IMG/VR virus record: IMGVR_UViG_3300024054_000549
Length of the DNA: 43,934 nt
Source: a virus
Lineage: Duplodnaviria; Heunggongvirae; Uroviricota; Caudoviricetes
Strand: one strand, 5' to 3'
Shown here: positions 2,183 to 37,243 of the stretch, piece after piece
Numbering within the stretch: the stretch's first letter is position 1
Layout of the letters: each line of letters begins with the position of its first letter
The notes under the pieces: generated by a model
Database searches by the model: none
What the model was told of the DNA's origin: nothing
The model's input: only the letters and a program-made list of their open reading frames with translations
Translations under genes and position numbers: made by a program

Positions 2183-4459
2183 CTAGTCCCAATCATCCAA
2201 TGTTGATTTTTTGATGTTATTACTAATTATAGTTATTTTTTTACCTGAATTTTCAAATTTTCTCTTAAGATAATTCAAATCATCATTTAAATCTAGTTGG
2301 ACGAATAGAATACATTCGTTAGCATATTCGCACATTTGGTCATATATCTTTTTGTAAGCATTCTTTCCAAATAGTACTTCATCTGGTACGAATTCTTTAT
2401 TCTTTAGTTTATTGTTAAGAGCATAATTAGCTCCCATCAAATCTACACTGTAGTTAACGGAATTGATGATTTCTTTAGCTCCAGAAATTTCAATTCTTTT
2501 ATTCATTTCTTTTTCAAACAATTCTTCATTTGAAAAATCTTCTGAACCGTGAACTAAAATGGTGTACTCATTATGATCTTTAACAATGTTTTCGTTCCGA
2601 GATGTTAACTTAGCTTTGAATTTCTTAGATTTATCATTCTTAACTTCACCAAGCACTCGTTTATCGAAATGTGTAACAGGCACAGTTAAATCATCGTTTT
2701 TATTGATGTATTTATTAAGAATCCATGCTCTTGAATCTTTATTCAGTTCATGATCTTCTTGAGTAATATCAATTCTTTGAATTCCATAATCAAAAAATTC
2801 AATGTTCTCTTTTAGAAGATATTTATTCCGTTCCATTTCTTCAGAAATTCTGATGATTTTATCTTCAGGTAAATATGAAAGATATGTTCTCCAATCGATA
2901 GCCTTCGTTAGCATATTTTGATCGGATTCACCTAATTTCAGCAAATCTTTCATTACTTTATTATCAATTGTATCAGGAATTTCATTTCCCCAGATATAAT
3001 CGTAGTAATTACAGTTAAGTAACTTTGGCGCTGTTAGAATCTTAATGATCCTTGAATTATCCTTTGTGTACCTGTAGAATTTAAGAACATCAATAACTTC
3101 AGTTCGTTTAGGTTCACTTATATTATTTAGAATATTCCATTTTTTCAGGGTATTGAAATCAATACTTTGAATTTCTTTTATGATTTCCTGATCGTTTTTA
3201 TCTGAATCATTTAAAATTGGTGCTTTCATCATATCGATAATTGTTTCACCAATTGTTCGATCTTTATATTTGTCGAAGATATCATAATTTGTTATGTGAT
3301 GCCACCGTTGGAATCTCCATGATACAGAAGTAATATCTGGATGATTATGCATCAGCATATTTGATTTAGGCAATGTTCCTTCTTCGGCATAGAATGCTTC
3401 AGTATTTCCACCAGCCATCGTTTGCGTTCCCATTTTTCTAGATAAGAACGCATCGAATTGAATTGTACTATATCCTTCTTTTAAGGATCTGATACAAATA
3501 TCTACATCTTCGTTGTACCTTCCAGCCCATCTAAAATCGAGATCGTTCCTAATCAATAACCCAGAATAGATTTTTGTATTCGGGACATAAGGACGATCTT
3601 TCATTCCTGGAACTGCGAACATAGCATAATTTAAGCCAGCGATTCCTATGTTCTCATATCTATTAATGAAATCTTCGGCTGCTGCAAAAATTGTCCCATC
3701 AACAGCCTTGATACGCTGATCATCATTATAATACATGAAACCAAGAATGTTATCATCAAATATCCAATGAAATTTGGATTTTAGAACATTTTTAGAATGA
3801 TGCCAGACGAAGTTCCTAGCTGGTCCAGAACCCTTCGATCGTGATTCATCGAAATTCTCGATATATGTATCATATTCTTTCTTGAAATTCATATCTAATT
3901 TCAGAAGAATATCTTCACCATAAATCTTGGCGTAATCATTCCATTCTTGTTCCTCAATAACAATACGGAATGGAACTTCCATCTTAATTAGATGATCAGC
4001 TGTTATACATGTGCCAGAACGACCCTTACTTATGATGTAAATTGGGTACTGAGGTTTGGTCCTAGTTCCAAGTATTCGCGTTCTAACTGAACTCGTAAAA
4101 ATGTTCTCTTTATAATTAATAGAATTAGTTCGCGATGTTATATTCTGCTCAAGTAATTCACTTAGTTTTTCTGTACTGAATGAATTATCGAAATAGAATA
4201 GAATTTTAGCGAACTTTTCATTATCATTACTCTCAAATGGAGTAAGATTGATCCAATGTTTTTGCCATTCTTTCAGTTCACTCGGTTTTTCTTTCAAAGA
4301 ACGTTTAAATGTGAAGTCAATCGAATTCGCTCTGAGAAAAACTTCCTTCATATTAGGAAGGAGCTTATAATCATCTTTCCCATGAAATAGTTTATTCGAT
4401 AGATTGTTCAGACTTTCTTCGGACTTGAAATGAAGTAGTATTTTTCTCAGATTTTCCAT
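2183..4459 (-). CDS. TAGT/GREB1-like (GT-A) glycosyltransferase fused to a C-terminal YspA-type SLOG-like domain
   Basis: PIYIISKGR, GSGPARNF, HWIFDDN and RYNED match the TET-associated GT family. C-terminal ILVHGSEDF...DLMGANYA...FGKNAY...QMCEYA resembles YspA/DUF2493 SLOG. Start moved from TTG 4498 to ATG 4459, 17 nt after the ugd stop. Confidence 0.75.
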   Translation of the reverse strand: MENLRKILLHFKSEESLNNLSNKLFHGKDDYKLLPNMKEVFLRANSIDFTFKRSLKEKPSELKEWQKHWINLTPFESNDNEKFAKILFYFDNSFSTEKLSELLEQNITSRTNSINYKENIFTSSVRTRILGTRTKPQYPIYIISKGRSGTCITADHLIKMEVPFRIVIEEQEWNDYAKIYGEDILLKLDMNFKKEYDTYIENFDESRSKGSGPARNFVWHHSKNVLKSKFHWIFDDNILGFMYYNDDQRIKAVDGTIFAAAEDFINRYENIGIAGLNYAMFAVPGMKDRPYVPNTKIYSGLLIRNDLDFRWAGRYNEDVDICIRSLKEGYSTIQFDAFLSRKMGTQTMAGGNTEAFYAEEGTLPKSNMLMHNHPDITSVSWRFQRWHHITNYDIFDKYKDRTIGETIIDMMKAPILNDSDKNDQEIIKEIQSIDFNTLKKWNILNNISEPKRTEVIDVLKFYRYTKDNSRIIKILTAPKLLNCNYYDYIWGNEIPDTIDNKVMKDLLKLGESDQNMLTKAIDWRTYLSYLPEDKIIRISEEMERNKYLLKENIEFFDYGIQRIDITQEDHELNKDSRAWILNKYINKNDDLTVPVTHFDKRVLGEVKNDKSKKFKAKLTSRNENIVKDHNEYTILVHGSEDFSNEELFEKEMNKRIEISGAKEIINSVNYSVDLMGANYALNNKLKNKEFVPDEVLFGKNAYKKIYDQMCEYANECILFVQLDLNDDLNYLKRKFENSGKKITIISNNIKKSTLDDWD

Positions 4460-4476
4460 AATTTTAACAAAATGAT

Positions 4477-5646
4477 TTAGGCGTCGGAATTGAAACAATC
4501 ACGAGTATAACATTTAGAAAGGTAAGGCGTTAATTCTTGCTCAATTCGATTAGCAATAATAATATCAGACATTTCATTAAAATCTTCAATATTGTTAATC
4601 ACAGGAATTCCATTGAAATTTGTATCTTTATGAGCTGGCTCATAAATAATCACATCAATGTTTGATTTTCTGATCTCTGAAATGATATCGAAGATCGCTG
4701 ATTCCCTGAAATTATCAGATCCTGCTTTCATAATTAGTCTAAAGATTCCAACTGTTTTGGGATTCTTAGATAGAATTTGATTTGAAATAAAATTCTTCCT
4801 GATTGAATTAGATTGTACGATAGCTGAGATAATTGAATTAGGCGTGTCCTTAAAGTTAGCTAGTAACTGTTTTGTATCTTTAGGGAAACAATAACCGCCA
4901 TACCCAAATGATGGATTGTTATAATGTGTTCCTATACGATGGTCTAGCGATACACCTTTGATAATATCTGATGCATTCAATCCATTTAATTCAGCGTATG
5001 AATCTAATTCATTAAAGAATGACACGCGCATCGCTAAATATGAATTGGCAAATAGTTTAACTGCTTCAGCCTCGGTTGGTTCAGTCAATAGAACCTCAAT
5101 ATTATCTTTTCTAGCTCCTTCTTTAAGAAGATTAGCAAAAATCTTAGCTCGTTCAGATTTTTCTCCAACAATGATTCGATCAGGATAAAGATTATCTTTT
5201 AGAGCCGTTCCTTCTCGAAGGAATTCTGGACTGAAAATAACATTTGATACATTAAGTTTCTTCCGGGTTTCAAGAACATATCCAACAGGAATTGTGCTCT
5301 TAATAACAATTGTGCATGAAGGTGAGTACTTATTAGCATCCTTAATAACATGTTCGATCAAAGATGTATTAAAGTACTTCGTTTCGGGATTATAATCTGT
5401 TGGTACTGCAACCACAACATAATCAGCACCCGTGTATGCTTCTTCTTTGTTCAAAGTACTCTTTAGATTAAGTTCTCCAGATGCTAAAAATTCAGAGATT
5501 AATTCGTCCTCAATCGGAGAAATTCCAGAGTTGATTTTGTTCACCTTCTCTTGATTCACATCTAGCATTACAACTTTATTTTTCTGAGCTAATAGAACAG
5601 CAACAGAACTTCCAACATACCCACTTCCAACAACAGCGATTTTCAT
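4477..5646 (-). CDS. ugd: UDP-glucose 6-dehydrogenase
   Basis: GSGYVG Rossmann motif, KSTIP, SPEFLREG, catalytic GYGGYCFPKD, SDNFRES; 389 aa like bacterial Ugd. Confidence 0.95.
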   Translation of the reverse strand: MKIAVVGSGYVGSSVAVLLAQKNKVVMLDVNQEKVNKINSGISPIEDELISEFLASGELNLKSTLNKEEAYTGADYVVVAVPTDYNPETKYFNTSLIEHVIKDANKYSPSCTIVIKSTIPVGYVLETRKKLNVSNVIFSPEFLREGTALKDNLYPDRIIVGEKSERAKIFANLLKEGARKDNIEVLLTEPTEAEAVKLFANSYLAMRVSFFNELDSYAELNGLNASDIIKGVSLDHRIGTHYNNPSFGYGGYCFPKDTKQLLANFKDTPNSIISAIVQSNSIRKNFISNQILSKNPKTVGIFRLIMKAGSDNFRESAIFDIISEIRKSNIDVIIYEPAHKDTNFNGIPVINNIEDFNEMSDIIIANRIEQELTPYLSKCYTRDCFNSDA

Positions 5647-6497
5647 TTCATTTCCTTTTTCAAATTTTCAATATAATCTTTTAAATTGTATTCAGCGCAC
5701 CAACCGAGTCGTTTAGTTCTCTCAGTAATAACGGGAGCTGACATTCTATTGCCCTTCCGTTCTGGTAACATTTCATAATCAGAACCGAACATTTCAGCTA
5801 TTTCAATTATAGAATATGATTTATCGTCACCTATGCCATATTCATCTCCATCTCCGTGCTCACCAATAAGAACAAGAGCATTAACCGTATCATTAACATG
5901 TGTAAAATTCCTTCTTTGTGTGCCTGGTGAAACTACTCCAAATTTTTCTGATTTTCTTAATTTCTCTGCAAATAAAGCAATAAGGGTGCTGTACGGCCCA
6001 GTTTTTATTTCATTCTTGCCGTAAACATTATAAAAATACGCTATTGCATATTTTAAGTTGAACCATTTCCCATAATTCTTTACTAATTCGGTATTGGATG
6101 ATTTTGACCAAGCATATGGTGATTCTGAAGCATTCGTTCCTGAATCACCAAATTTCGTACTGCTCCCTGCATAGATCAATTTAGAATCATTTACCCTGGC
6201 GAACTCAAGAACCTTAGAAGTTCCATTTTTATTGAACTCTAAAACTTGTTCAATATCTAAAAAACTTTGCTCAACCCTTGAGTACTCACCTAAATGGTAA
6301 ATAAGATCAGGTTTAAAATGAACCTTTTGAAAAATATCTACAGTTGACCCATAAATGTATTGAACTCCGGGAACATGATTATCTCTCGACCCAGTGAAAT
6401 AATTATCAAGCGAAACAACATCATGCCCAAGTTCATTTAATCTTTCACACAAATTAGACCCAATGAAGCCAGCACCACCAGTAACTAAAATTTTCAT
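5643..6497 (-). CDS. NAD-dependent nucleotide-sugar epimerase/dehydratase (extended SDR)
   Basis: TGGAGFIGS, YAWSK (YxxxK), YNVYG, RNFTHVND; 4-nt overlap with ugd. Confidence 0.9.
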   Translation of the reverse strand: MKILVTGGAGFIGSNLCERLNELGHDVVSLDNYFTGSRDNHVPGVQYIYGSTVDIFQKVHFKPDLIYHLGEYSRVEQSFLDIEQVLEFNKNGTSKVLEFARVNDSKLIYAGSSTKFGDSGTNASESPYAWSKSSNTELVKNYGKWFNLKYAIAYFYNVYGKNEIKTGPYSTLIALFAEKLRKSEKFGVVSPGTQRRNFTHVNDTVNALVLIGEHGDGDEYGIGDDKSYSIIEIAEMFGSDYEMLPERKGNRMSAPVITERTKRLGWCAEYNLKDYIENLKKEMK

Positions 6498-6540
6498 ATA
6501 TTTCCTTTGTGAAATATTCTATATCTAGATTATTTAAAAA

Positions 6541-7686
6541 TTACCAATCTAACGATTGAATTTTACTACGGTTGTTGAATTTTGTTATTGCGTTGTTCAG
6601 AATTGTTGAAATTCTTGATTTATATTTTTCTTTGCCCATTTGGGTCTCAGCAGCATTTGCTAATTCCTGACGTTCTGATAATGTCATATTCTTAAATACT
6701 GATACAGCATTTAAGAAATCTGATTTTGTTTTGATGAGTTTTAAGTACTTATGGTACTCTTTTGGAAGCATTTCGAGAGCTGGATGACCATTTTTATCTT
6801 TAAGTATTAAAGGTACACCTCTACTTAGAGATTCTAAAGATGTTATTGTAAATGTATCTGGATAATTACCAACAAACGTTACTTCTGATTTACCAATATT
6901 ATCCATAATCTCAGAATGATTAACATCTAATTCAATATCCTTCGAGTACTTATTTAATGCGTTAAGAACGTACTCATCTTGCTGATCTTTACTTTGATGT
7001 CCAAGAGTACTATAAGTTTTGACATTTCTTCCAGATCCTTCAAGATATATATTAATTAGAAATGTATCTTTTCCCTTAGATGCCGCTGAAACGTGTCTTA
7101 TGAATCCATCTGATTCTTGAACGGTAGTTTTTTCACAGTATTGAGGATAAAAAATTTCATCTGGAACGATACCGTCGAAATTCCATTCTGATCTTTTAGT
7201 ACTGTAGTATTTTATTATTCCAGCTTTATGGTATTCTGAAACAGCACAAAATGTACATCCATGTGTACTCACCATTTCATTAAGAAGATTAGCATTCAAA
7301 AAATCAGTCCAAAACCCAGGCATTGAATGAAGAACATAAACAATGGGAATATTCAGGTTTAATAATTCTTTATAGAATTTACTGAACTCATAATTGCTTA
7401 TGATAACATCTGGTTTAAATTTATGAATGTCGTTAATTATTTTCTTTTCAATGCTGCTCTTATGAGTTCTTGAAAATGATTTGATATCTTTTACATTATG
7501 ATTCACATAATAATCGATACCTGAGAAATCTTGATCAAGATCTGTGAATGCTGAGAACATTCTTACATCATGACCCATTTCTTTTAAGATATTGAATTGA
7601 GTTAATGCCGCAACATCGATCCCAGATACTCTTTTTTCCCTAGAAAAAAATGTTTTCCTGGAATAAGTTAAAATATATATTTTCAT
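6541..7686 (-). CDS. GT-B fold glycosyltransferase (GT4-like)
   Basis: N-terminal SG...LKEMGHDV and C-terminal DTFTITSLESLSRGVPLI, a variant of the ExFGxxxxEAxxxGxP donor-binding motif. Confidence 0.8.
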   Translation of the reverse strand: MKIYILTYSRKTFFSREKRVSGIDVAALTQFNILKEMGHDVRMFSAFTDLDQDFSGIDYYVNHNVKDIKSFSRTHKSSIEKKIINDIHKFKPDVIISNYEFSKFYKELLNLNIPIVYVLHSMPGFWTDFLNANLLNEMVSTHGCTFCAVSEYHKAGIIKYYSTKRSEWNFDGIVPDEIFYPQYCEKTTVQESDGFIRHVSAASKGKDTFLINIYLEGSGRNVKTYSTLGHQSKDQQDEYVLNALNKYSKDIELDVNHSEIMDNIGKSEVTFVGNYPDTFTITSLESLSRGVPLILKDKNGHPALEMLPKEYHKYLKLIKTKSDFLNAVSVFKNMTLSERQELANAAETQMGKEKYKSRISTILNNAITKFNNRSKIQSLDW

Positions 7687-7722: not shown

Positions 7723-7881
7723 CTATTTTTGGTCTTTACATTCTTTACAATCAATCACATTATGTTTTTTGCATGGCTTTGGTCGTTTAACTAAATCTAA
7801 TTTAGTTGTAACTGTGGCTATATCACCAGATGTTGTTTCTTCTGACAATTCTTTCAGGAAATTTTTGAAATTTTTAATCAT
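7723..7881 (-). CDS. Small Cys/His-rich protein (52 aa), not in the ORF track
   Basis: Hand translation: MIKNFKNFLKELSEETTSGDIATVTTKLDLVKRPKPCKKHNVIDCKECKDQK. ATGA overlap with the upstream stop; C-x2-H-x4-C-x2-C pattern. Confidence 0.65.
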   Translation of the reverse strand: MIKNFKNFLKELSEETTSGDIATVTTKLDLVKRPKPCKKHNVIDCKECKDQK

Positions 7882-8876
7882 TTTTCTATATCAATCCATT
7901 GTTTAATTTTTCTTGATCCAATGGGCATAATTCCAAACCTAGCACCATTTATTCCAAAATCTTTGCGGGAGCCTCCTTTATAAACAACTGATAAAATTGG
8001 CTCATAATTCCCAGTTAGTTTATCACCATTTTGATGAATATGATACGCAGATAATTCATAGTGCTGCCCCTTTTTGATTAGTTTAACCTCACCCTGAAGT
8101 AAAATACTGACATTTTGTTCACCTAATCTACGAGATTTGAAATCCTTCCCGTAAACTGCCATGTTCTTTAAATCTTTCGAATAAATTTCTGAAGCTGCTG
8201 TTACAGCAGGACTAAGTTTTTCACCATACATAGATTTAATTTTATCGACGAATTTCTGAACATTATCTGGTGTTGTTGGGTATTCTTTCTTTGAAACACC
8301 TCCCCAATTCTGAAAATCAGTTGGTGACCTCCCATCTTTATGTGATATCCATATACAGGCATCACCATTTTTATCTAAGAGATGAAAATCGGATTTTGGT
8401 GTTCCTCTCGTGGATTCTGCTCCAATTATATCATATTTTTTGTTATTACACTTCACAGTTATAAAAGATGAATTTGATTCTAGAATTGCATTCTTTATTT
8501 GAACTTGAAGGCTTTTTAATTGAGCATCTTCCTTAGCTGTTGAAGCCCCAGCACCCTTCCCACCTAGTTCTGAATCTTTGAACAATTCCGTTATCTTATA
8601 GAATGATTTACTTCCGGTTCTCGAATCGATAAGTTCAATTAATAATGGATCAGAGATTATTCTATTCTCAAGAAAATTGTTTATGTCCTCTGAAGATATT
8701 TTATTTTTGGAATTGAATTCTCTTTTGACTTTATTTATTGAAAATAAAGCTTTCCCAGTACAATTAAATAGTTCTGAGTTTTCCTTAATCAAAAATGATC
8801 CATCTGAATTTATTCTCTTAGTAATAATTTCTATGTTATTTCGTTTTGTTATATCTTTATACGTTATTTGTGACAT
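7878..8876 (-). CDS. Putative PD-(D/E)xK-fold nuclease-like protein (332 aa)
   Basis: E...PKSD...ISHK arrangement resembles the variant restriction-endonuclease active site seen in T4-like phage proteins. The ORF is solid; the function is tentative. Confidence 0.5.
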   Translation of the reverse strand: MSQITYKDITKRNNIEIITKRINSDGSFLIKENSELFNCTGKALFSINKVKREFNSKNKISSEDINNFLENRIISDPLLIELIDSRTGSKSFYKITELFKDSELGGKGAGASTAKEDAQLKSLQVQIKNAILESNSSFITVKCNNKKYDIIGAESTRGTPKSDFHLLDKNGDACIWISHKDGRSPTDFQNWGGVSKKEYPTTPDNVQKFVDKIKSMYGEKLSPAVTAASEIYSKDLKNMAVYGKDFKSRRLGEQNVSILLQGEVKLIKKGQHYELSAYHIHQNGDKLTGNYEPILSVVYKGGSRKDFGINGARFGIMPIGSRKIKQWIDIEK

Positions 8877-10371
8877 AGTAGTTCAATGCTTTTCTATACA
8901 TATCATGTATTTCTTTTGGTGTATTCTTTAAAAAGAATTCTTTATCATTAATGTTAGATATAATCTTACTTGCTGATATACCTGATTCATTTCTTTGTAA
9001 TTCTCTAACTGATATTCCAACGTTATTTCTAATTTGTTCCATATAAGATTGTACTCTATCAGAACCTGCGTAAATTATATTTATGTTAATATCAATTTTA
9101 TTTAGAATCGATAGAATATTTCCATTATTAGAATGAACTATTTGAACGTTAGGAAAACACTTCTTAACCATTTCCTCACGGAAATCTTTAGTTTCAATTG
9201 TATCGGATCCAGTTACTATACACACAACGACATTATCGTAAAGTGTTAATGCTCGTTTAATTAATTTATAGTGACCTTCTTTTGTGAATATTCTGAATTT
9301 ACCAATTACTAATACGTTATTGTTCCCTTTCATTTTTTTAATGAGAAGAGTTTTTGCATTCAGTTGAATATCATCTTTTATATTAGTTTCAGTTTTAACG
9401 GCATGAGAAAATGTTAATTTCATTCGTTTCAGTGCTAATGAAAGTTCAGCAAGAACATCATCTAATTTTTTTGATGGCTGTACAGAATTAACTAACTCTA
9501 GAGAAACTCGTTTAACATTATCCCAATACTTTGCTTCTTCAGCTGGATTATTGTCCTTGTATTTAAGTTTATTAATCAATCTTGCTTCTTGATCGAGTTG
9601 ATATTTTTGTTGGAACTTTAAGATTTTATCCTTGAACTTAATTACTATTCCTTCTTCATTTCCACCGTATTTTGATTCTATACTTAGAAATAAATCCTTG
9701 ATATCATTTAATACATCTATGGAATCCCACCGTATTACATTCTTTCTTTTATCAAATTCAGCCCGAAGATTTTTGTTAATAATACCAGATTCGAATGATA
9801 TTTGAGATCCAAGAATCCCCTTAAAAAGTAATTGTGGTACATCTATTTTCAGTTCTTTTGCGTACTCATTTCGTTTTTCAGTAAAGAATCCAGATGGAGA
9901 TGTTATTAATTTTCCAAAATTCTCTTTAAAAGTAGAAGCACTGTATCCTATCAGAACCATTTTGTGTTTAGTACTATAGTTACTTGAAATAGTTGGTTTG
10001 GACATTAGAAATTCTATAAATAATTCTGTCCCAACGGGAATACTATTTTTACTTAAACTATCAAAATGTTCAAATACTAATTTGAATTGACTCGAACCAA
10101 TTGATTCTTTCTTTATTTTTGATGTTGGTTGAAAATTATATTCTGTACTATATAGAATATTTCCCTTATAAGCAAAAATATAATCTTTAAGATTACCATT
10201 ATTAGCTTGTTTAATAACAGTAAGCTTCACACCATCCGTTTTATGTTCAACAGAAACTTCTGAGAATAAAAAATCTTTTATTTTAGAATCAGTTGTTAAA
10301 TACTTTTCGGCAGCTTGAATCGAAATATCAAGTTGCTGTTTTGATTCACTTATATATTCATAAAAATTCAT
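8857..10371 (-). CDS. Fusion of an ATP-dependent ligase-like adenylation domain and a HIGH-superfamily (cytidyltransferase/NMNAT-like) domain
   Basis: N-terminal half has EHKTDG (KxDG motif I), EGIVIK (motif IV) and KILKFQ (motif V). C-terminal half has GKFRIFTKEGH, AGSDR and ISASK. Confidence 0.7.
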   Translation of the reverse strand: MNFYEYISESKQQLDISIQAAEKYLTTDSKIKDFLFSEVSVEHKTDGVKLTVIKQANNGNLKDYIFAYKGNILYSTEYNFQPTSKIKKESIGSSQFKLVFEHFDSLSKNSIPVGTELFIEFLMSKPTISSNYSTKHKMVLIGYSASTFKENFGKLITSPSGFFTEKRNEYAKELKIDVPQLLFKGILGSQISFESGIINKNLRAEFDKRKNVIRWDSIDVLNDIKDLFLSIESKYGGNEEGIVIKFKDKILKFQQKYQLDQEARLINKLKYKDNNPAEEAKYWDNVKRVSLELVNSVQPSKKLDDVLAELSLALKRMKLTFSHAVKTETNIKDDIQLNAKTLLIKKMKGNNNVLVIGKFRIFTKEGHYKLIKRALTLYDNVVVCIVTGSDTIETKDFREEMVKKCFPNVQIVHSNNGNILSILNKIDININIIYAGSDRVQSYMEQIRNNVGISVRELQRNESGISASKIISNINDKEFFLKNTPKEIHDMYRKALNYYVTNNV

Positions 10372-11573
10372 AGCGATCTAAGATAATCCCTGAATGATTC
10401 GTGTATTTTTCCTCTTTGACCATAATCTTTATAGTACTCTTCGGCAAGTTTTACTGATTCATCTTTCATACCGAACTCTTTGATGAATTTTTGATATCCA
10501 CTGAATTTAATCTGAAAATCAAGTTCAGCATTGTTAAATTCTAATTCTTGAGCTCTTTGAGGTTTTAGACCCCAAATTAGTTCAACATATCTGATGTATG
10601 TATTTTTTATCTCATTCTTAGATAAGAACTTTTTCATAAGTTCTATAACACCAATGAAAGATCCGAATAGTTTAACATCTGATTCTCGGCTATTTAATTG
10701 CTTAAATGACAGTTTATAAATTTCAGCAACAATTGTCTCGTAAGTACTGTTCTTAGTTGGAATTTCTTTATAAACTTGCTTTCCGTCTAATACTATGACC
10801 TTTCCAGTTTTTGGGTCGATTAAAGGTTCATAGGCTATTCTGATTCCCTTTCCTACTGAAAATTTAAGCATTTTAGGAATCAAATGCGTTTTATTTGCAC
10901 TTAAAGTTATATTTTCCGGTGTACTACTCTGTGTTGCTATGACTATATCTTCACGAATTGAAGCAGCTCCTATTAATGCTCTGATCAAATATTTGTGATG
11001 AACAGCTTTTACATTAATTTTAGCATCATCAAAAGAAGAACTATGTGAAAATTTAGCCCATTCGGTTGGTTTATTATTCTCGAACTCAAGGAATTCAAAA
11101 TCAACTTGAGCATAAGCTTTTTGACCGTTTGGGAAATCAACCATAATAACTGAGTTAATCTGCTCACCTATCGAGGAAATAGTCAGCTTATTTGACCCCA
11201 TATAACGAGCACCATTGATTATCTCTTTCCCCTCTATTGAGTCAAGATATTTCCAAAGATCTTCTTTTAATTCTTCTGGAACAGTAATATCAATATCACC
11301 AGCACTTGGTTTGTACTTCATAACTTCTTCATCACTTAATGACTGATCCATTATAAATGAAGTACTTCCATTGAAAACAAATCCAGTTATTAAATGTGTT
11401 TCATCAATCCAAATTGGCTTTTTGAACTTTGACTTGAAATCCTTATTCATGAACTTAAAAATTTCTATAAATTTCTTCATGAATTCTTGTCTACCGATTT
11501 CCTTGATCGGTATTTTTTGAGCTTTCGTTTCCTCTCCGCTGGATTTAATTACTGCTGTTACATTTCCACCCAT
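10368..11573 (-). CDS. Pol-beta-superfamily nucleotidyltransferase-like protein (401 aa)
   Basis: NGST...SAGDIDIT (GS + DxD) and a third acidic residue in QVDF; GGNV start seen in phage NTase-like proteins. Confidence 0.65.
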   Translation of the reverse strand: MGGNVTAVIKSSGEETKAQKIPIKEIGRQEFMKKFIEIFKFMNKDFKSKFKKPIWIDETHLITGFVFNGSTSFIMDQSLSDEEVMKYKPSAGDIDITVPEELKEDLWKYLDSIEGKEIINGARYMGSNKLTISSIGEQINSVIMVDFPNGQKAYAQVDFEFLEFENNKPTEWAKFSHSSSFDDAKINVKAVHHKYLIRALIGAASIREDIVIATQSSTPENITLSANKTHLIPKMLKFSVGKGIRIAYEPLIDPKTGKVIVLDGKQVYKEIPTKNSTYETIVAEIYKLSFKQLNSRESDVKLFGSFIGVIELMKKFLSKNEIKNTYIRYVELIWGLKPQRAQELEFNNAELDFQIKFSGYQKFIKEFGMKDESVKLAEEYYKDYGQRGKIHESFRDYLRSL

Positions 11574-11580
11574 AGAACAC

Positions 11581-12606
11581 CTATGCTAAAGTATTCTTTA
11601 ATTCTTCTTCATTAATAAAATCTTTGAATGATTGAGACTCAAATAATGCTGATCTATATGGTAAAATTACTAAATGTGTTCGATATTTTGAACTAATTAA
11701 ATTATGAGGATTTTTTATATCGAACGAGCATTCAATAGGTTTAACTATCATAGTACCTGATGGATCTGTTTGAATAATAGATGTTGAAAATATTTTTACA
11801 TCTGAACCTTCAATTGGAGGAACTTCATCCTTTAATCTTACTGGTCTAAAGAATGGATTTTTATCAATTTCTTCCCTACCAAGTTTAGATAATGTAGTAA
11901 TAAGATCCAAAGGCTCAAAAGCATTTTCTTCTAGAGCTTTCATGGCGTATTCTCTGCGTTTAATTGAAGATTTATGTCCATCGCCATCTTTTGGTTGGTA
12001 CCCAAATTTCGTTTCAAGAACACCAGAATTGGTTCTTACAATTAAATAATCTTCTTTAATTTCTAGAACTTCTGTAGCATATTCCTCTGGTTGAACAACA
12101 TCTTCAAATCTCTGACCATCCTTGAGTGTACCTCTGTATTTTGCTGCAATTTCTTCGGGAATTGAGGTCTCAATTATGAATAATTGATCGCCGTTAGTAA
12201 TTAAAGTACACCCATCGAACTTATTTTCCTGAATCAATTTAACTGAATCTTTGATATTATTTTGCTTTAGAGCTTTCCGAATAACCCTTCCATTGCTAGA
12301 AATTGGCATATCATTAACATCGTTCTTTGCTTTTCCATCCTTTTTGTCAGAATGATTATTCAGAGCAGAATTAACCATACTAATATATGTGCCATCTTTG
12401 AGAACAGAAACGCCCTCGGTCCAATCGGTATCATTGTCTATTAAGAATAATTGTGATGCACCATGCTCAGATACTGTGTACCGTCTGATTTTATAGTCAG
12501 CATTGTAAACGCGATCTCTAATCTTAGCTAAACGCCATTTTGCATCTTTAGTTGGTTTCCCAGTCTTTTTATCTCTGGGTAATTTCATTGCTACAGCAAC
12601 ACACAT
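11581..12606 (-). CDS. N-terminal nucleophile (Ntn) hydrolase-like protein (341 aa)
   Basis: Cys2 start (MCVAVAMK), KIRDR, WTEGV, MVNSAL and RTN match the Ntn fold pattern; GGAG RBS. Confidence 0.65.
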   Translation of the reverse strand: MCVAVAMKLPRDKKTGKPTKDAKWRLAKIRDRVYNADYKIRRYTVSEHGASQLFLIDNDTDWTEGVSVLKDGTYISMVNSALNNHSDKKDGKAKNDVNDMPISSNGRVIRKALKQNNIKDSVKLIQENKFDGCTLITNGDQLFIIETSIPEEIAAKYRGTLKDGQRFEDVVQPEEYATEVLEIKEDYLIVRTNSGVLETKFGYQPKDGDGHKSSIKRREYAMKALEENAFEPLDLITTLSKLGREEIDKNPFFRPVRLKDEVPPIEGSDVKIFSTSIIQTDPSGTMIVKPIECSFDIKNPHNLISSKYRTHLVILPYRSALFESQSFKDFINEEELKNTLA

Positions 12607-12632: not shown

Positions 12633-12640
12633 TATTTATA
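12633..12640 (-). promoter_or_regulatory. T4-type late promoter TATAAATA
   Basis: Exact consensus in the intergenic space, about 27 nt upstream of the Ntn hydrolase ATG and just downstream of a terminator. Confidence 0.75.
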
Positions 12641-12704: not shown

Positions 12705-14981
12705 TCATTCCAAAATAGTCATCCATTTATGTGCACCATAAGTTTTTGACATTAAATCATATGAAGATTTATCAGTAATGAACAACGCTACTGAATTCTT
12801 ACGAACTTTAGCTAATTTAAAGAACTTAAATGTTTCTTTATCATGAACCAAATCAGCATCTGTGAACATAATAATATTCATATTATTTTCATGGAAATAT
12901 TCAATTATCTTGTGCATCTGTGGTATATATTTTGTACCAGAAGCATAACCTACACTTAATAATTTTTGAAGTTGTTGTTTCTGACCGTACTTAATATCTT
13001 TAGGTTTAGTAAGTAAAACATCATGATTAATCAACTTTTCAGATTCCATCGCGTTAATATTAACCTTATGAACTTCAAAATCTGTACTGAACTTAATAAC
13101 GAACATATTGCTAAGTTCTTTTTTATTGTCTTTAAGAAGTTTAAGAATTTCTTTATTGAAATTTCCTACAACATTCATAACAGAACCAGAAGTATCAATT
13201 ACAAATACTAAACCTTTTTTATTACTGTCAAATACAACTTCACCGGGTGTAATTCTTCCAGCACCAGTTTGAGATGCTGTAACCATTGAAGATGTAGCTT
13301 GTCTGGACATTTTTGAATATGTATCCTCAGCTTCACCGTTTCCGGTTGGAATCATTTTTTTGAGAATTTTTTTCCAATTGATAGTTACTTTTGTATCATC
13401 AAATTCAATTTTTGCTGTACCAGAACTATTAATATTACTCTTGACAGATGTATTATCGGAATCTTTTTTCTCTAATGCTGTTTTAGCATCATCATTACCG
13501 TCGTCTCTTTTACTGATGTTTTCTCTATTCTTTTTCATTGCTTCATCAATACTTTTTGCTATTTTATCGGCTGGATGAGCATCATTATTTCCTTGCCCTG
13601 ATTGTCCTGGCTGACCTGATTGTCCTTGACCTTGACCTTGTTGTCCTTGATCTTGCCCAGGCTGACCTGATTGTCCTTGACCTTGACCTTGTTGTCCTTG
13701 ATCTTGCCCAGACTGATCTTGTTGTCCTTGACCTTGACCTTGTTGACCTTGATCTTGCCCAGACTGATCTTGTTGACCTTGATCTTGCCCAGACTGATCT
13801 TGTTGACCTTGCTGTCCTTGACCTTGCTGTCCTTGACCTTGTCCCTGATCTTGTCCCTGATCTTGTCCAGGCTGATCTTGTTGATCTTGTCCTTGACCTT
13901 GTTGTCCTTTACCTTGTTGACCTTGACCCTGTTGTCCTTGTTGATCACCAGATTGAGAATCCTTTCCTCCTTGTGATGGTGTATCATCAGAATTATCCAT
14001 ATGATCATCCATACCGGATTCCATGGATTGCTTCATTTTTTCTGTATCTTCTGGACTCTGATTGAAAAATTCTTCAATAACAGCTTCAATCATATCTTCG
14101 TATGTTTCAAATTTGTCATAGTTTATTTCTGAACTGAACAACCCAACTGGAAGCTGTTCATATCCAGACTTAACAAGCTCCCAGTTATTGATAAAATCAC
14201 CAACATAATTAAGTACAGAATTAGCGTTAGAACCAATTTTTGGATGTTTTTTCAATATTTTATCAACCATTTTTTTAGTATAGAAATGATCTCCACTTGA
14301 AAAATGCATCAATTCATGCAAAATAACAAACTCAAGATAACAGTAGTGATCTGGTATTGGGCCACCATTACTTTTGTATTTCTTAGATTTTGGTTTAACA
14401 TTGTTTATTAATGCAGAAATCGCTAATGTTTCAGAGAATTTTCTATTAAATACCATCTCGGCATTAGGTGTACAAAATGCTGTTTTGCAATTATTCCGTG
14501 CGTTTTCTCTTAATTTTTTATCATTAATTAATGGAAGATGATCTGGAGTAATAAAGAAAAATGGCTTAACAGCTTTTGTTTCAAATGGATTTCTTAATGG
14601 AAAGAATCTAGCGTTCTCACCAAGAACATATTGAGTTAAATCAAAAAAGTAATCTCTATCTAACAAATCTTCTCGATCTTTAACACCAAGAGGCTCTAAA
14701 TTAATATCGTCTGGATTTAACTCAGAAATAAGAGAGAATGCTATAGATTCAGCAGCGTTATTAACGGCATCTTTGTTCATTTTAGATGAACCAAGCTGTG
14801 AAATATGCTTATGGTATTGTTCGTTAAAATATTCCTGAGCTTCAGATAAATCTATGCCTTTTGTTTTGGCATAGACTTCAATAGACTTCTTGATATTTGA
14901 ATCATTAGGTGAACTCTTTTTTAATTCAAGATTAATCTTTAATGATTCCAAACGTTCATTTATAAAATTCAAAAAACTCAT
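12705..14981 (-). CDS. Zincin-like metallopeptidase + Q/G-rich linker + VWA domain protein (DUF2201-like architecture)
   Basis: TAFCT, HELMH (HExxH), long QG linker, DTSGS MIDAS and FTD. Start moved from TTG 14996 to ATG 14981. Confidence 0.85.
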   Translation of the reverse strand: MSFLNFINERLESLKINLELKKSSPNDSNIKKSIEVYAKTKGIDLSEAQEYFNEQYHKHISQLGSSKMNKDAVNNAAESIAFSLISELNPDDINLEPLGVKDREDLLDRDYFFDLTQYVLGENARFFPLRNPFETKAVKPFFFITPDHLPLINDKKLRENARNNCKTAFCTPNAEMVFNRKFSETLAISALINNVKPKSKKYKSNGGPIPDHYCYLEFVILHELMHFSSGDHFYTKKMVDKILKKHPKIGSNANSVLNYVGDFINNWELVKSGYEQLPVGLFSSEINYDKFETYEDMIEAVIEEFFNQSPEDTEKMKQSMESGMDDHMDNSDDTPSQGGKDSQSGDQQGQQGQGQQGKGQQGQGQDQQDQPGQDQGQDQGQGQGQQGQGQQGQQDQSGQDQGQQDQSGQDQGQQGQGQGQQDQSGQDQGQQGQGQGQSGQPGQDQGQQGQGQGQSGQPGQSGQGNNDAHPADKIAKSIDEAMKKNRENISKRDDGNDDAKTALEKKDSDNTSVKSNINSSGTAKIEFDDTKVTINWKKILKKMIPTGNGEAEDTYSKMSRQATSSMVTASQTGAGRITPGEVVFDSNKKGLVFVIDTSGSVMNVVGNFNKEILKLLKDNKKELSNMFVIKFSTDFEVHKVNINAMESEKLINHDVLLTKPKDIKYGQKQQLQKLLSVGYASGTKYIPQMHKIIEYFHENNMNIIMFTDADLVHDKETFKFFKLAKVRKNSVALFITDKSSYDLMSKTYGAHKWMTILE
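13585..13975 (-). repeat. Low-complexity coding repeat encoding a Gln/Gly/Asp linker
   Basis: Repeated ccttga, ccttgttgt and gatcttgcccagact units encode QGQGQ and QDQSGQDQG blocks. Confidence 0.85.
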
Positions 14982-14999: not shown

Positions 15000-17864
15000 T
15001 TAAAAACTCTTTAATTTTTTCATAGTTTCTTCATTTTGAAGAACATCAAGAATATCAATCTTATTAGAACTTAATAATGCTACGATTCTCGAACCTATTG
15101 CTTTCTTGAGTTGATCAGCATAGTTATTTGAAGCATTAAGCTTTTCAAGAGATTTAGCAATTTGGTCGTAAAGTTTTAATGTCTTATCTAGTATCTCTGC
15201 ACCAGAAGTAGAATTAAAGTATTCATCTACTATAGTTGCAACATCTTGTAGCATTTCTGTTGAGCTGAAATCCTTAATGTACGAGCCAATAACACCCTTA
15301 TCTAAGAATGTAACATCTCCATCAGCATTCTTAAGAATCTGAACTAAACTGAGAGTATTAACTGATTTTTTCGTTCTAATTGTTTCAAAAGATTTTTTGA
15401 ATTTTTCATTTCCAACAATTTTCTTTCCTAAAGTATTTGTAAAACCTTCTATTTCTTGTTTCAAGGTTATCATTTTGAATGTTGTTACAAATGATTTAGC
15501 AGTTACATTGATAGCTTCATCAATGAACTTCTTGTACTCTTCATCAGAATAACTTCCATTTAAATCCCAACCCATATCATCAAATGAATCTTCAATTTGA
15601 GTCATAGTATTTGAGATGCACTCTGTCATTTCTCTTGGAGACACATAGAACGAATCTACACCATCACTCCACCAGAATGGTTGAATATCAATATCTTCAA
15701 TATCGTTCCCATCGGAATCCTTAGCACTCTTGAACTCTAATGCTAACTGATACATTATATTTGAGACAGATTCTGTGAGATCAAATCCCATACGTTCGGA
15801 TAGTTTAGTTAAGTTTTCTTTCGTTTTGATGTAGTTAAATGTCTCAGTGAAATTTCCAGATGAAGGAATAATATCGAGAACGTCTCTAGTATGAGTTGTG
15901 AACTCTATAGCACCAATATCATTAGGGTTAATTGCTCCGGTAATGATAATGTCATCTGGCAATTTAACATGTTCGAACTCTTTTTCGAGAAGAATCTTAC
16001 GAATAGAATTGAATACAGGAACAGAAGCTCTATTCAGTTCATCGAATAGAAGAATGATGTTATATTTTCTTCCTTCTTGTCTATAATCATTTATCTGTTC
16101 ATTATATTCCTTCATTATAGTTATATAAAGATTAGATTCTGAAAAATTAGTGGTTATATTGTCTTGGCCTTTTGACATATCAGCAATAGGCATGCCTGTA
16201 ATATCTTCTGGCGTTAAATTAGATACATCGATATGAATGTATCCCATTTTCATATCTTCAGATAATTTAACCATTTGTGTTGTTTTGCCGATACCAGGCT
16301 GACCTGAGACTACAGGAACATATTTTCTGCTATCTCCAAGTTTAATTTTAAGTTCTAGTTCAGTTTTTAACTGATCACGCCACTGAGATTTTTTAACTGG
16401 TGTTCTTAATATATTCTCAATATTAATTTGAACACCTTCTGGAGTTGTTTCTTTAATAAGATCTGTGGCTATTTTTGTAAATTTATCAAGAAGTGGAATA
16501 GATGATTTTTCATCTACATAATTACTTAAGTTATTTTTTATGAATCCTAGTAATTCTCTAGCAGAATCTTCAGAATTAACTGGAATTAATGAATCTATAC
16601 AGATAAGCATTTGCTCCAATCGTCTTGGAGATAATCTAACATTAGCTGATTCATCATTAAACCCAAGTTCTTTGTCTGTTAATTCATTCATGAATTTATT
16701 CCAAACTTCAGGCTTAATTGAAATCCCAGTTGGTGTTCCTACTTCATAGGTTCCATCATCTTTTGGAATTTCATTTTTATCTTCGGGGTTATTAACATAT
16801 TTCCCGTACATATAAGACATGAAATCCTCTTTTGAAGAAACATCATAGTCCATTAAATGGAAATCTTGATTCAGAGGAATATCTTCAACACCTTCATCGT
16901 TAATGTTCGTGGCCATGATGATATAAACTCCTTTCGGAATTTTATCATTGCCTATTTTTCCATTAAGAATGTTCCGAAGAACGTTTCTAATTTTAATTGA
17001 TGCTGTTCTATAGAATTCATCTAAGAATAAAATAGCATTGTATGATTCTGCAACCTTTTCAATTCTCTTCTGGAGAATAGGATAAATATCTCTAAGAATT
17101 TTATTCTTATTGATCTCCGTTTTTATTTGATCTGGTGTTCTTTTTGTTTTAGACTTTAATTGCGTAACTAGATTTGATTCAGCTTGAACAACCTTCATCT
17201 GTTGAACGGAATCGTCAACTGTAAGATTACCTTGACGAGTTTTTGGTCCATCAATAACTAAAAAAGGAATGTTAATAAGATGTTCTTGAGTAATATGTGG
17301 TGCTTCAATAACAACTAAAGGAATACCAGTTAAAGTACTTAACGATCTGATAAAAGATGTTTTACCAGTACCTGGATCACCACCTAGCATATATGTAGTT
17401 TTAACAGTCCCCTCAGCAAATGCCTTCATATGCGAAAGGATTGTTTTCATCTGATCGACATATTTCGAACTAGAACTCATTTTTGGAACTAAGAACTTCT
17501 TTTCAATTAGCTTAGATATATCTTTAACACCGACAGCTAAATCTGAATCTTGTTCAGTTCCAGAATCTTTATTATTTTTTGAAAGCCATTCCAGACCAAG
17601 TTCTGTGATTTTATAATCACCAGTTTTCCCATTTTCTCTTGCTATCATTTTTAATTTTAGCAATACACCGCGCATTGGATGCCCATCTTCTGGAAATTCT
17701 GCTCTGATTTTTTTATCAGCTGTTGGCTTCCAAGTGTCGGTGCCAAATAAATCATGCATTTTTCTTAGCATTTCTCCGGGTGTTTTGCCGGATTCATCCT
17801 CAGAATTCATGTCTAAAGTTTTAGCTTCACCTAGATGCTGTTTAATAAATTCGTTAAATTCCAT
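15000..17864 (-). CDS. Tandem AAA+ ATPase (MoxR-like, two modules) with a possible N-terminal winged helix
   Basis: Walker A GDPGTGKT and GQPGIGKT; Walker B LFLDEF and LLFDEL; ATN and AIN sensor-1. Start moved from TTG 17876 to ATG 17864. Confidence 0.85.
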   Translation of the reverse strand: MEFNEFIKQHLGEAKTLDMNSEDESGKTPGEMLRKMHDLFGTDTWKPTADKKIRAEFPEDGHPMRGVLLKLKMIARENGKTGDYKITELGLEWLSKNNKDSGTEQDSDLAVGVKDISKLIEKKFLVPKMSSSSKYVDQMKTILSHMKAFAEGTVKTTYMLGGDPGTGKTSFIRSLSTLTGIPLVVIEAPHITQEHLINIPFLVIDGPKTRQGNLTVDDSVQQMKVVQAESNLVTQLKSKTKRTPDQIKTEINKNKILRDIYPILQKRIEKVAESYNAILFLDEFYRTASIKIRNVLRNILNGKIGNDKIPKGVYIIMATNINDEGVEDIPLNQDFHLMDYDVSSKEDFMSYMYGKYVNNPEDKNEIPKDDGTYEVGTPTGISIKPEVWNKFMNELTDKELGFNDESANVRLSPRRLEQMLICIDSLIPVNSEDSARELLGFIKNNLSNYVDEKSSIPLLDKFTKIATDLIKETTPEGVQINIENILRTPVKKSQWRDQLKTELELKIKLGDSRKYVPVVSGQPGIGKTTQMVKLSEDMKMGYIHIDVSNLTPEDITGMPIADMSKGQDNITTNFSESNLYITIMKEYNEQINDYRQEGRKYNIILLFDELNRASVPVFNSIRKILLEKEFEHVKLPDDIIITGAINPNDIGAIEFTTHTRDVLDIIPSSGNFTETFNYIKTKENLTKLSERMGFDLTESVSNIMYQLALEFKSAKDSDGNDIEDIDIQPFWWSDGVDSFYVSPREMTECISNTMTQIEDSFDDMGWDLNGSYSDEEYKKFIDEAINVTAKSFVTTFKMITLKQEIEGFTNTLGKKIVGNEKFKKSFETIRTKKSVNTLSLVQILKNADGDVTFLDKGVIGSYIKDFSSTEMLQDVATIVDEYFNSTSGAEILDKTLKLYDQIAKSLEKLNASNNYADQLKKAIGSRIVALLSSNKIDILDVLQNEETMKKLKSF

Positions 17865-18202: not shown

Positions 18203-19510
18203 TTATATACCATAATTTTCTAAGAATTTTTTAAAAATAATAAAATCTTTTAATGAACTACCGTACAAATTATTTTTCATAATTACATTTACTAATAATT
18301 CATTATTTATTTTAGTTCTTTTAGCTAAATATTTGATTTGAGACATATCCAAGCGATATATATTATTCTTAAATATAATTTCAAAGTCTGAAAGATTTGG
18401 ATCGTAATGATATCTCGATCCCCATATCTTGTTTAATTTTCTGAATTCTTCCTCAGATATATACACCATTGCAGAATCTTTTACGTATTTAGGATCAAAG
18501 AACTCTGGATTCTGAATTATTTCTTCTTCCGTAAAAAATCTTTCGTTAGTAAAATCGATGGTTTCTGAATCTTTTAATTTTAATTCTTTAATTTCTTTAA
18601 GACTTATTTTTGTATTTTTAACCATTAAGCTAGGTGATAAGAAATCTTTGAACTTTATTATTTGCTCACGCGTGAGAAATTTTATTACATAATGTGGAAA
18701 ATTTCCATCGGGTGTATTGAATTTCCTTTGAAGATATTCATCTGGTAAAATAAGGTTTGGGTGTTCTTCAACGTATTTAAATAAATCTGTAAATTCAACA
18801 TTGTGAGAAGTATTTATCAAGAACTCTAAGAATCTAGATTCAGGAAAATCTTTAATTAGAACATAAACACCTTGAAAAGATTTTTTAGCATAATCTATTA
18901 CTTCTTCATCAGATTTAATGAATTTATGAACAAATTCACTTAAATTTTCTATCAAAATATTATGTCTAACTTGTTCATTTATTTTTAAGATTGTATCTAA
19001 GAACTTTTTTCCTTCTTCTTGACTTAATACGGTACTGTCAAGTTCACCAATTTTTACATTAGAACTCAAAGTTTTTAGAATACCTATAATTTTTTCTATA
19101 TTATTAGGTTTTAAGAACAATTCAAAGATTTTTTTATTAGCTACTGCCGTACTGATAAGTAAGAATATATTGACATCGTTTATACGAGTATAAAACATCT
19201 TAGATATTTCATAAATACTAATAAGAAAATCCTCCCATTGAGTCTCATTTGGTTTTGAGCTTGCTGAGCTTGATTTAATAACATTTTTAAGCACATTATT
19301 AAAAATGTTATCTTTGAAAATGTTTACACCGTATTTTCCTTTATAGATTTCAAAAATAGTTCCATAATTATTCATTATAAAATCTAGAATAAAATCAAAT
19401 TCAAAAGAATAATTAGATTTATCAGTACTGAAATCAAGTAAGATATCAGTCTGTAATAAACCTTTCCAGTCTTTTTTATTGATCAGATCTTGTTTTTCTT
19501 GTGTGTACAT
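18203..19510 (-). CDS. Paralogue array member 4 (435 aa, most divergent), unknown function
   Basis: Shares MxTQEKQDLIxKKDW and RFFTEEEIIQNPEFFDP with the three neighbouring genes. Confidence 0.85.
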   Translation of the reverse strand: MYTQEKQDLINKKDWKGLLQTDILLDFSTDKSNYSFEFDFILDFIMNNYGTIFEIYKGKYGVNIFKDNIFNNVLKNVIKSSSASSKPNETQWEDFLISIYEISKMFYTRINDVNIFLLISTAVANKKIFELFLKPNNIEKIIGILKTLSSNVKIGELDSTVLSQEEGKKFLDTILKINEQVRHNILIENLSEFVHKFIKSDEEVIDYAKKSFQGVYVLIKDFPESRFLEFLINTSHNVEFTDLFKYVEEHPNLILPDEYLQRKFNTPDGNFPHYVIKFLTREQIIKFKDFLSPSLMVKNTKISLKEIKELKLKDSETIDFTNERFFTEEEIIQNPEFFDPKYVKDSAMVYISEEEFRKLNKIWGSRYHYDPNLSDFEIIFKNNIYRLDMSQIKYLAKRTKINNELLVNVIMKNNLYGSSLKDFIIFKKFLENYGI

Positions 19511-19523
19511 GCAATTTCCTATA

Positions 19524-20816: not shown

Positions 20817-20829
20817 GTGTTTTCCTATA

Positions 20830-22116: not shown

Positions 22117-22125
22117 TGGGTTTCC

Positions 22126-23439: not shown

Positions 23440-23447
23440 TATTTATA
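23440..23447 (-). promoter_or_regulatory. T4-type late promoter TATAAATA
   Basis: Exact consensus about 22 nt upstream of the first paralogue ATG. Confidence 0.75.
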
Positions 23448-37235: not shown

Positions 37236-37243
37236 TATTTATA
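37236..37243 (-). promoter_or_regulatory. T4-type late promoter TATAAATA
   Basis: Exact consensus, intergenic, upstream of the capsid-family gene. Confidence 0.75.

Follow-up and report, generated by a model that had tools for sequence, protein, structure and literature searches.

Possible C-terminal capsid targeting sequences on two predicted enzymes of a T4-like phage

Known targeting signals and the locus under study

The capsid targeting sequence (CTS) of bacteriophage T4 reads MKTYQEFIAE. The first 10 residues of T4 IPIII suffice for encapsidation, with positions 4 and 7 serving targeting and positions 8 and 10 processing (PMC9026906), and the prohead protease gp21 cleaves after I/L-x-E (PMC12991175). 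Here we examine two neighbouring genes, encoding a predicted N-terminal nucleophile (Ntn) hydrolase and a predicted nucleotidyltransferase (NTase), in IMG/VR record IMGVR_UViG_3300024054_000549, a stretch of 43,934 nucleotides (nt) that we refer to as a whole as the window and that is part of an AT-rich (~31% GC) T4-like phage. Both proteins end in a short peptide resembling the T4 tag. We read the two tails as C-terminal versions of a T4-type CTS that are removed at an upstream h-x-E site (h, hydrophobic), and give this reading a probability of roughly 0.62.

Several described systems resemble this arrangement in part. Encapsulin cargo-loading peptides, which are short and usually C-terminal, sometimes N-terminal, load enzymes into a shell of the HK97 fold; they differ from the present tails in binding the shell directly, in remaining uncleaved, in sequence, and in serving a non-viral compartment. 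Prohead proteases (SPN3US gp245, phiKZ gp175, T4 gp21 and the HK97 protease) possess C-terminal segments proposed or shown to bring the protein into the prohead and then removed, the tail of the HK97 enzyme reportedly being a prohead-loading segment. Such segments, however, sit on the protease itself and are long and family-specific, rather than a short portable motif common to N-tagged cargo. Among SPN3US proteins the cargo propeptides are all N-terminal, and only the protease gp245 has a C-terminal one, for which a targeting role was proposed (PMC7411985). The P1 DarB signal likewise shows that a terminal signal can by itself bring a large anti-restriction enzyme into the head of a myovirus, but that signal is N-terminal, spans 30 residues, has an unrelated sequence and is devoid of protease-site logic (PMC9024508).

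T4 Alt is a packaged and injected enzyme whose C-terminus is cut by the prohead protease at an [IL]-x-E site, and is the only such T4 cargo known; gp21 removes a 63-residue C-terminal propeptide at LTE-619 and an N-terminal one at ITE-6 (Ali et al. 2017, PMC5694885). It differs from the present case in the length of the C-terminal propeptide, in the lack of a described CTS-like motif there, and in having an N-terminal propeptide as well. On inspecting T4 alt (L084, 13455-15503; L numbers denote loci used for comparison), we found within the C-terminal propeptide ..VDFASFVSS.., a segment that faintly resembles the CTS core (aromatic-x-x-F-[IV]); with an N-terminal propeptide of only 6 residues, VDFASFV may be a candidate targeting element. 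An initial sequence-only reading of the window knew of no description of a C-terminal CTS. None was found among the papers examined that use the term capsid targeting sequence, but T4 Alt and the SPN3US protease are partial precedents.

Compared with the T4 CTS, the element described here is of similar size (~10 residues), shares the same four key positions, and is found on unrelated cargo of apparently late genes, in a lineage with a gp21-type protease. Whereas the T4 signal is strictly N-terminal, these tails are C-terminal and lie behind an extra upstream h-x-E site, and the cargo consists of large enzymes where that of T4 consists of small basic proteins. The features of the two genes are as follows, a slash marking a candidate cleavage position and lengths being given in amino acids (aa).

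11581-12606, minus strand: Ntn hydrolase gene, 341 aa; the product starts MCVAVAM and ends ..ALFE/SQSFKDFINE/EELKNTLA
12601-12606, minus strand: Met1-Cys2; once Met is removed, Cys is the predicted N-terminal nucleophile; neither residue varies among 48 sequences; GGAG upstream
11638-11646, minus strand: L321-F322-E323, candidate prohead-protease site where the domain passes into the tail; [MLIV]-[FY]-E in 69/70 homologues
11584-11637, minus strand: Ntn C-terminal tail, 18 residues; predicted helix 327-340 after a linker
11608-11631, minus strand: CTS-like tag SFKDFINE, residues S326-E333, inside the Ntn C-terminal tail
10368-11573, minus strand: NTase gene, 401 aa; the product starts MGGNVTA and ends ..KIHE/SFRDYLRSL
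11562-11570, minus strand: G2-G3-N4, the mature N-terminus of the NTase family; invariant in 69 sequences
10398-10406, minus strand: I390-H391-E392, candidate prohead-protease site before the NTase tail; 65/120 homologues match the strict pattern
10371-10397, minus strand: NTase C-terminal tag SFRDYLRSL, 9 residues; the stop codon overlaps the ATG of the next gene

Minus-strand translation reproduces exactly the protein ends quoted in the sequence-only reading (..ALFE-SQSFKDFINE-EELKNTLA and ..KIHE-SFRDYLRSL), and the motif is missing from both N-termini, as that reading had noted. The motif as it occurs in the window has F/Y at position 4, F/Y at 7, I/L at 8 and E at 10, which are all four of the T4 CTS positions; in the C-terminal peptides SFKDFINE and SFRDYLRSL, F occupies position 4 and F/Y position 7. 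The Ntn protein has the candidate [IL]-x-E sites LFE323 and INE333, and the NTase has IHE392.

Folds of the two proteins and conservation of their tails

With 48 homologues as input, AlphaFold (AF2) modelled the 341-aa protein at a predicted local distance difference test score (pLDDT) of 88; metagenomic homologues number 72. Foldseek places the model with E ~1e-5 and probability 1.0, and VIA aligns it to the NAAA beta chain (6dxy_B) with Z 19.5 (root-mean-square deviation 2.9; 201 residues aligned) and to CV2077/TANGO2 (3gvz_A) with Z 19.0, further matches being acid ceramidase, isopenicillin-N acyltransferase (IAT), and bile-salt and penicillin-V hydrolases (BSH/PVA). Residue 2 of the model, the invariant Cys, superposes on the first residue of the NAAA beta chain and on residue 1 or 2 of mature BSH/PVA. 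Searches of Pfam gave no match for the Ntn protein or the NTase of the window, and the Ntn homologue in L023 matches the Pfam family AAT (PF03417) at 23.4 bits vs a cut-off of 23.2. The assignment of the protein as a Cys-type Ntn hydrolase, with an alpha-beta-beta-alpha sandwich and Cys2 as predicted nucleophile, which had been proposed from the sequence, holds on the evidence of this model.

The MC start is backed by a GGAG Shine-Dalgarno sequence 7 nt 5' of the ATG. In Ntn orthologues with no extension before the Cys the start codon abuts it, even where that codon is ATT or TTG; in the others the presequence ends h-x-E/C. ATT abuts the catalytic Cys in L008 and L010 (~9990-10003) and TTG in L021 and L022, in each case after a GAGGA/GGAGG box and with no ATG or GTG; gene callers began these four proteins downstream, so the Cys was lost.

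For the 401-aa protein the AF2 model has a pLDDT of 93, and the sequence matches the unnamed PHROG family phrog_19290 (1.6e-85). The top eight VIA matches are Pol beta, lambda, mu, TdT or African swine fever virus PolX, followed by terminal uridylyltransferases and OAS/cGAS, at Z 7.2-7.9, which is the grey zone of the tool; Foldseek returns Pol lambda at E 1e-3. Residues N68-G69-S70, D93-I-D95 and D158/E160 are invariant in 69 sequences and fit the hG[GS], DxD and third acidic residue of that superfamily. The earlier suggestion of an NTase therefore stands, on matches to Pol-beta folds only together with these invariant motifs: support for a Pol-beta-superfamily (PolX-like) NTase is modest but consistent across the model and alignment, and weaker than for the Ntn hydrolase. 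A blastn search of both genes against 50,697 phage records gave no match. The cultured relatives closest to the window phage are Va1-like Vibrio phages (70% identity over the helicase) and the Campylobacter Firehammerviruses.

Both tails are conserved and lie outside the folded cores, on the evidence of homologue counts, low-pLDDT linkers and naturally tail-less homologues. Among Ntn homologues (36-100% identity), a tail of 5-28 residues (median 16) comes after [MLIV][FY]E in 69/70, and F-x-x-hydrophobic is present in 56/69 of those with tails. Across 48 Ntn sequences E323 is invariant and F322 nearly so. NTase tails matching [LIVMF]xE[ST]{1,2}F..[FYWLM][LIVM] occur in 65/120 homologues, with about 15 more conforming loosely. 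Structurally, the Ntn core ends near residue 314, the block 321-330 has a mean pLDDT of 61, a helix spans 327-340, and the best structural matches stop at residues 292-325, before the tail. The last core helix of the NTase model comprises residues 373-381, followed by a linker (382-393; pLDDT 68-75) and a helix (394-400). The nearest cultured NTase homologue, from Vibrio phage SRILMA, is tail-less (C-terminus ..YGQRKG), and the chains of several Ntn homologues finish just past the core. Because natural homologues of both enzymes end right after the core, the tails are add-ons and not parts of the folds. A conserved Glu in a disordered linker, recurring in two unrelated families, reads as a putative site for a trans-acting enzyme.

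These models also bear on the simplest alternative, namely that each tail is a normal terminal helix of its fold, serving for instance in oligomer contacts like those of BSH/PVA tetramers, and resembles a CTS by coincidence in an AT-rich genome with an F/K/E/I-rich proteome. AF2 predicts the helices with moderate to good confidence, and some BSH/PVA and C69 alignments reach model residues 325-341. Against this stand the homologues ending directly after the core, the E-[ST]-F-x-x-aromatic-[IL] pattern at a low-confidence linker that is common to two unrelated families, and the two observations on motif frequency and motif position given below, with which we consider coincidence very improbable.

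Tags at the opposite end in neighbouring genes and in homologues

The same motif opens five other genes of the window, each time followed by an [IL]-x-E site:

10345-10371, minus strand: N-terminal tag MNFYEYISE/ of the 504-aa RNA-ligase-like/cytidylyltransferase protein (8857-10371)
14955-14981, minus strand: N-terminal tag MSFLNFINE/ of the VWA/metallopeptidase-like protein (12705-14981)
17826-17864, minus strand: N-terminal tag MEFNEFIKQHLGE/ of the double-AAA (MoxR-like) protein (15000-17864)
26674-26703, minus strand: N-terminal tag MISFKDFLFE/ of the 178-aa protein (26167-26703)
7849-7881, minus strand: N-terminal tag MIKNFKNFLKE/ of a 52-aa open reading frame (ORF; 7723-7881)

Orthologues of the 178-aa protein start MGKFKQFLLE (L112), MGSFKTFLQE (L004) and MGTFKTYLKE (L116), and that of the 52-aa ORF in L112 starts MKFKKYLKDLAE. 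Orthologues of the 504-aa protein follow the NTase gene in 27 loci, and most open with M.F..[YF][IL].E/; in the most distant only a short [IL]xE presequence is left, and the presequences always end [IL]-x-E right before the conserved body. Tags elsewhere in relatives (MKTFKQYITE, MKTYVEFITE, MKTFNEFLFE, MKSFNEYLNE) are close to that of T4.

Within the 33 ORFs of the window, F-x-[DE]-[FY]-[IL] occurs 9 times, 5 of these terminal vs 0.2 expected. The N-terminal pattern was seen 5 times vs 0.07 expected (shuffle maximum 2), and a composite C-terminal pattern ([ILM]xE followed after no more than 4 residues by the motif, in the final 30 residues) was seen twice vs 0.009 expected, with 0/5000 shuffles reaching 2; the motif was defined post hoc, so these figures are indicative only, and the real weight rests on conservation in homologues. 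A scan of the related contigs G001, G002, G003 and G005 and of 1252 ORFs from related loci found no general C-terminal enrichment outside the Ntn and NTase families, and the C-terminal tag is therefore clade- and family-specific rather than a general habit. A chance resemblance of terminal helices would suit a short motif chosen post hoc and the lack of general enrichment in distant relatives; it fits poorly with shuffles that never reach the observed count, and with the recurrence of the same peptide at the N-terminus of tail-less homologues.

At 18203-23418 on the minus strand, four paralogues in tandem (428-435 aa; in no Pfam or PHROG family) also end in a tag-like ..FIKEFINSY. In eleven homologues at greater distance (P0199-P0209) the pattern h-x-[DEK]-F-[ILM]-x-[KR] persists at the C-terminus, and the weakest match, P0210, is without it. 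Since homologues keep only h-x-[DEK]-F-[ILM], we did not count this array as a further case; its ends may represent either a third tag of the C-terminal kind or no more than a terminal helix.

The sequence-only reading had raised the question of whether homologues lacking the tail carry the tag N-terminally, and in both families they do, with a Glu right before GGN or the catalytic Cys. A tail-less NTase in L155 starts MRSFKEFLSE/GGN and ends one residue past the core, and two genes downstream of it start MISFKQFLLE and MKTFRQFILE. The tail-less NTases of L144 and L129 start MLEISFFNYFNIHSKAVLLE/GGN and MKTFNQHRKQLQE/GGN, respectively, that of L156 behaves alike, and the Campylobacter phage homologues, also without a tail, start MKLSELMFILE/GGN. 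In the protein database, 12/13 N-terminally extended NTases end the extension with [LI]-x-E right before GGN, some extensions being only MINE or MLNE. Overall, the tail is missing in 5/6 NTase lineages with a long N-terminal presequence vs 16/128 without one (Fisher p = 3e-4, the independence of lineages being approximate). For the Ntn family, the tail-less homologue in L023 starts MEFKEFLFNE/C and is encoded between the portal gene and the genes for the prohead protease, the scaffold position and gp23, with neighbours starting MEKFKDYIKLRE and MNFKKWLLE; Ntn fusions and polyproteins show ..HIEE/C, ..KVDE/C and ..QVSE/C before the catalytic Cys. The orthologues in L155 and L023 thus conform to the N-terminal location of the T4 CTS from which both window proteins depart, and, judged from sequence, either terminus appears able to carry a working loading signal.

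The T4-type portal gene (gp20) of L023 (8748-12539, minus strand; 1263 aa) is interrupted by intein/Hint domains.

These homologues also allow a second alternative to be weighed, in which each tail is a C-terminal propeptide, removable by protease, whose role is to regulate or tether its enzyme, head targeting being achieved through other surfaces. T4 Alt offers a precedent, in that its C-terminal propeptide cut off at LTE-619 is without a known role; moreover, the h-x-E junction is better conserved than the tag, whose position 7 is degenerate in part of the Ntn family, and some NTases have both an N-terminal presequence and a C-terminal tail. Propeptides of this kind, however, would not be expected to match the N-terminal tags of five neighbours and the targeting positions of the T4 CTS, and the association of an N-terminal tag with a missing C-terminal tail in both families suggests that the two are equivalent. 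We therefore regard a purely regulatory propeptide as unlikely.

Several architectures connect the two enzymes with their neighbours. The NTase stop codon overlaps the start of the 504-aa gene (ATGA; 10368-10371), and the C-terminal tag of the one and the N-terminal tag of the other are encoded back to back within ~60 nt; in other phages both proteins form a single fused chain. The NTase is fused to ligase and cytidylyltransferase domains, those of the 504-aa neighbour, in L147-L152, L157, L158 and L162 (IMG/VR; 1000-1700 aa). The giant NTase fusions (L147-L151, L153/L154/L162, L157, L158) nearly all end ..[ST]E-x-x-D-Y-[LI]-[ED]-E-K, L152 being the exception, and those with this different C-terminal box also have an N-terminal presequence. 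Ntn domains occur in fusions with ligase-like proteins of ~950 aa or inside polyproteins (L042-L053; L038, L039, L065). In L023 a P-loop kinase (AAA_33) has a tag, and another contig has such a kinase gene between those for the NTase and the ligase. Taken jointly, the fusions and the AAA_33 linkage suggest a single pathway, possibly RNA or nucleotide repair.

Packaging, maturation and significance

A virion location is documented for one NTase homologue. Gene 1-56 of Campylobacter phage vB_CcoM-IBB_35 (39251-40417; 44.4 kDa) encodes an N-tagged NTase homologue. The set of 38 proteins identified in purified particles by tandem mass spectrometry includes this product, at 17% coverage (PMC3322345 Tables S1, S2). 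The protease expected to do the trimming belongs to the lineage, Peptidase_S77 (gp21) being present in 4/5 related contigs and in L023. A radical-SAM gene is located directly upstream of the NTase homologue in Campylobacter phage CP220 (gp099; L002 4966-5925) and in IBB_35 (gene 1-55); its product ends ..KIFESFTEHS, like the [ILM]FE/SF junction of Ntn tails, and was not detected in the IBB_35 virion proteome.

This neighbourhood raises a third alternative, that the shared peptide docks the enzymes on another partner, such as a MoxR-AAA/VWA multi-enzyme complex, the sliding clamp or a tag-modifying enzyme. T4 clamp-binding peptides have a short, acidic-hydrophobic, C-terminal form; the tagged genes adjoin, other phages encode fusions of their domains (of NTase to ligase/cytidylyltransferase and of Ntn to ligase), and the radical-SAM gene beside the NTase homologue in CP220 and IBB_35 would itself be a candidate tag modifier. 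A docking peptide, however, leaves unexplained why h-x-E closes every presequence precisely where the mature N-terminus begins, a sign of a Glu-specific prohead protease, why a homologue is present in the virion proteome, and why the N-tagged Ntn gene of L023 lies inside a head module. Furthermore, the DNA polymerase of a 72%-identical relative ends in AELDDW rather than in a tag, and no radical-SAM family was found among the 18 window proteins scanned against Pfam. Docking on another partner is accordingly quite improbable. Clamp binding, given that the true polymerase C-terminus of a close relative is without the tag, is kept here only as part of this low-weight alternative; an 890-aa window protein considered as the DNA polymerase was rejected as such, being a helicase.

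A match to the T4 late-promoter consensus is present upstream of the Ntn gene:

12633-12640, minus strand: TATAAATA, T4 late-promoter consensus match, 26 nt 5' of the Ntn start codon

Of eight matches to TATAAATA in the window, seven are on the coding strand in short intergenic gaps 5' of genes, and the total count is at chance level. The sequence is also found 5' of the AAA operon, the 178-aa gene, the paralogue array (at 23440-23447) and a gp23-family gene. The latter (36322-37194, minus strand; own TATAAATA at 37236-37243) encodes a protein of 290 aa, unusually short for a vertex or capsid protein, which starts MEKLNTKLLE/D, like the 10-residue propeptide of T4 gp24. Elsewhere in the window, a TET-associated glycosyltransferase (TAGT, PF20691) lies within 2183-7686 (minus strand), with neighbours resembling uridine diphosphate (UDP)-glucose dehydrogenase, a short-chain dehydrogenase/reductase (SDR) epimerase and a further glycosyltransferase, as judged from N-terminal sequences only; this region is likely a DNA base hypermodification cluster.

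Under the preferred reading, that of C-terminal CTS tags, the Ntn and NTase genes would be expressed late, together with the head genes. The amphipathic tag [ST]-F-x-x-[FY]-[IL] would bind the scaffolding core of the assembling prohead, and the enzyme would thereby be built into the head. A gp21-type prohead protease may then cut in the flexible linker after LFE323 of the Ntn hydrolase and IHE392 of the NTase, freeing the enzyme from the core, after which it would stay in the head and enter the next host with the DNA. For N-tagged orthologues, the ..E/Cys and ..E/GGN junctions are what a Glu-specific prohead protease would need, cleavage after the Glu giving the same mature N-terminus (Cys1 or Gly1) as Met removal gives in the window proteins.

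This last point modifies the earlier proposal that the tag was relocated to keep the catalytic N-terminus free. A free N-terminus does seem to be needed, given the Cys1 nucleophile and the invariant GGN, but relocation is not required for it, because N-tagged orthologues would yield the same free Cys or Gly by cleavage. Relocation would thus change when the enzyme is mature, not whether: with a C-terminal tag the mature N-terminus may exist from synthesis, vs a precursor unmasked only by the prohead protease.

Several observations weigh against this interpretation, in addition to the post hoc definition of the motif. The T4 CTS has been shown to work at the N-terminus only, and the packaging and trimming of the two window proteins themselves are what we infer. 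The tag is degenerate in the nearest Ntn sub-clade, which has I, V or M for the aromatic residue at position 7 (SFSGIIQ..), and the Ntn tail helix, with an AF2 pLDDT of 82-87, may pack on the body of the protein. Among NTase homologues, 16 have neither tag, the nearest cultured relative being one of them, and several have both an N-terminal presequence and a C-terminal tail.

A broader form of the interpretation, which we advance tentatively and consider doubtful, is that the CTS is position-independent and its end deliberately chosen: an N-terminal tag would yield a precursor unmasked in the head, and a C-terminal tag would allow the packaging of an enzyme already mature when made. On this view the tagged proteins would constitute an injected toolkit acting before phage gene expression, comprising the Ntn hydrolase, the PolX-like NTase, the RNA-ligase/cytidylyltransferase, the MoxR-AAA and VWA proteins and, in relatives, a P-loop kinase, for which RNA or nucleotide repair against host defences is a plausible job.

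If C-terminal tags of this kind do direct packaging, the rule that packaged or injected proteins of T4-like phages can be predicted from their first 10-20 residues would miss some cargo, including enzymes whose chemistry needs a defined N-terminus. The T4 protein-packaging system, as applied to delivery and vaccines, could then take cargo that is intolerant of N-terminal extension. The exact ..E/Cys and ..E/Gly-Gly-Asn junctions would also suggest that prohead proteases activate packaged enzyme precursors, a role of which we found no description. Taken together, these findings suggest that two uncharacterised and widespread families of phage enzymes, one of which has a member in a published virion proteome, are probably injected proteins.

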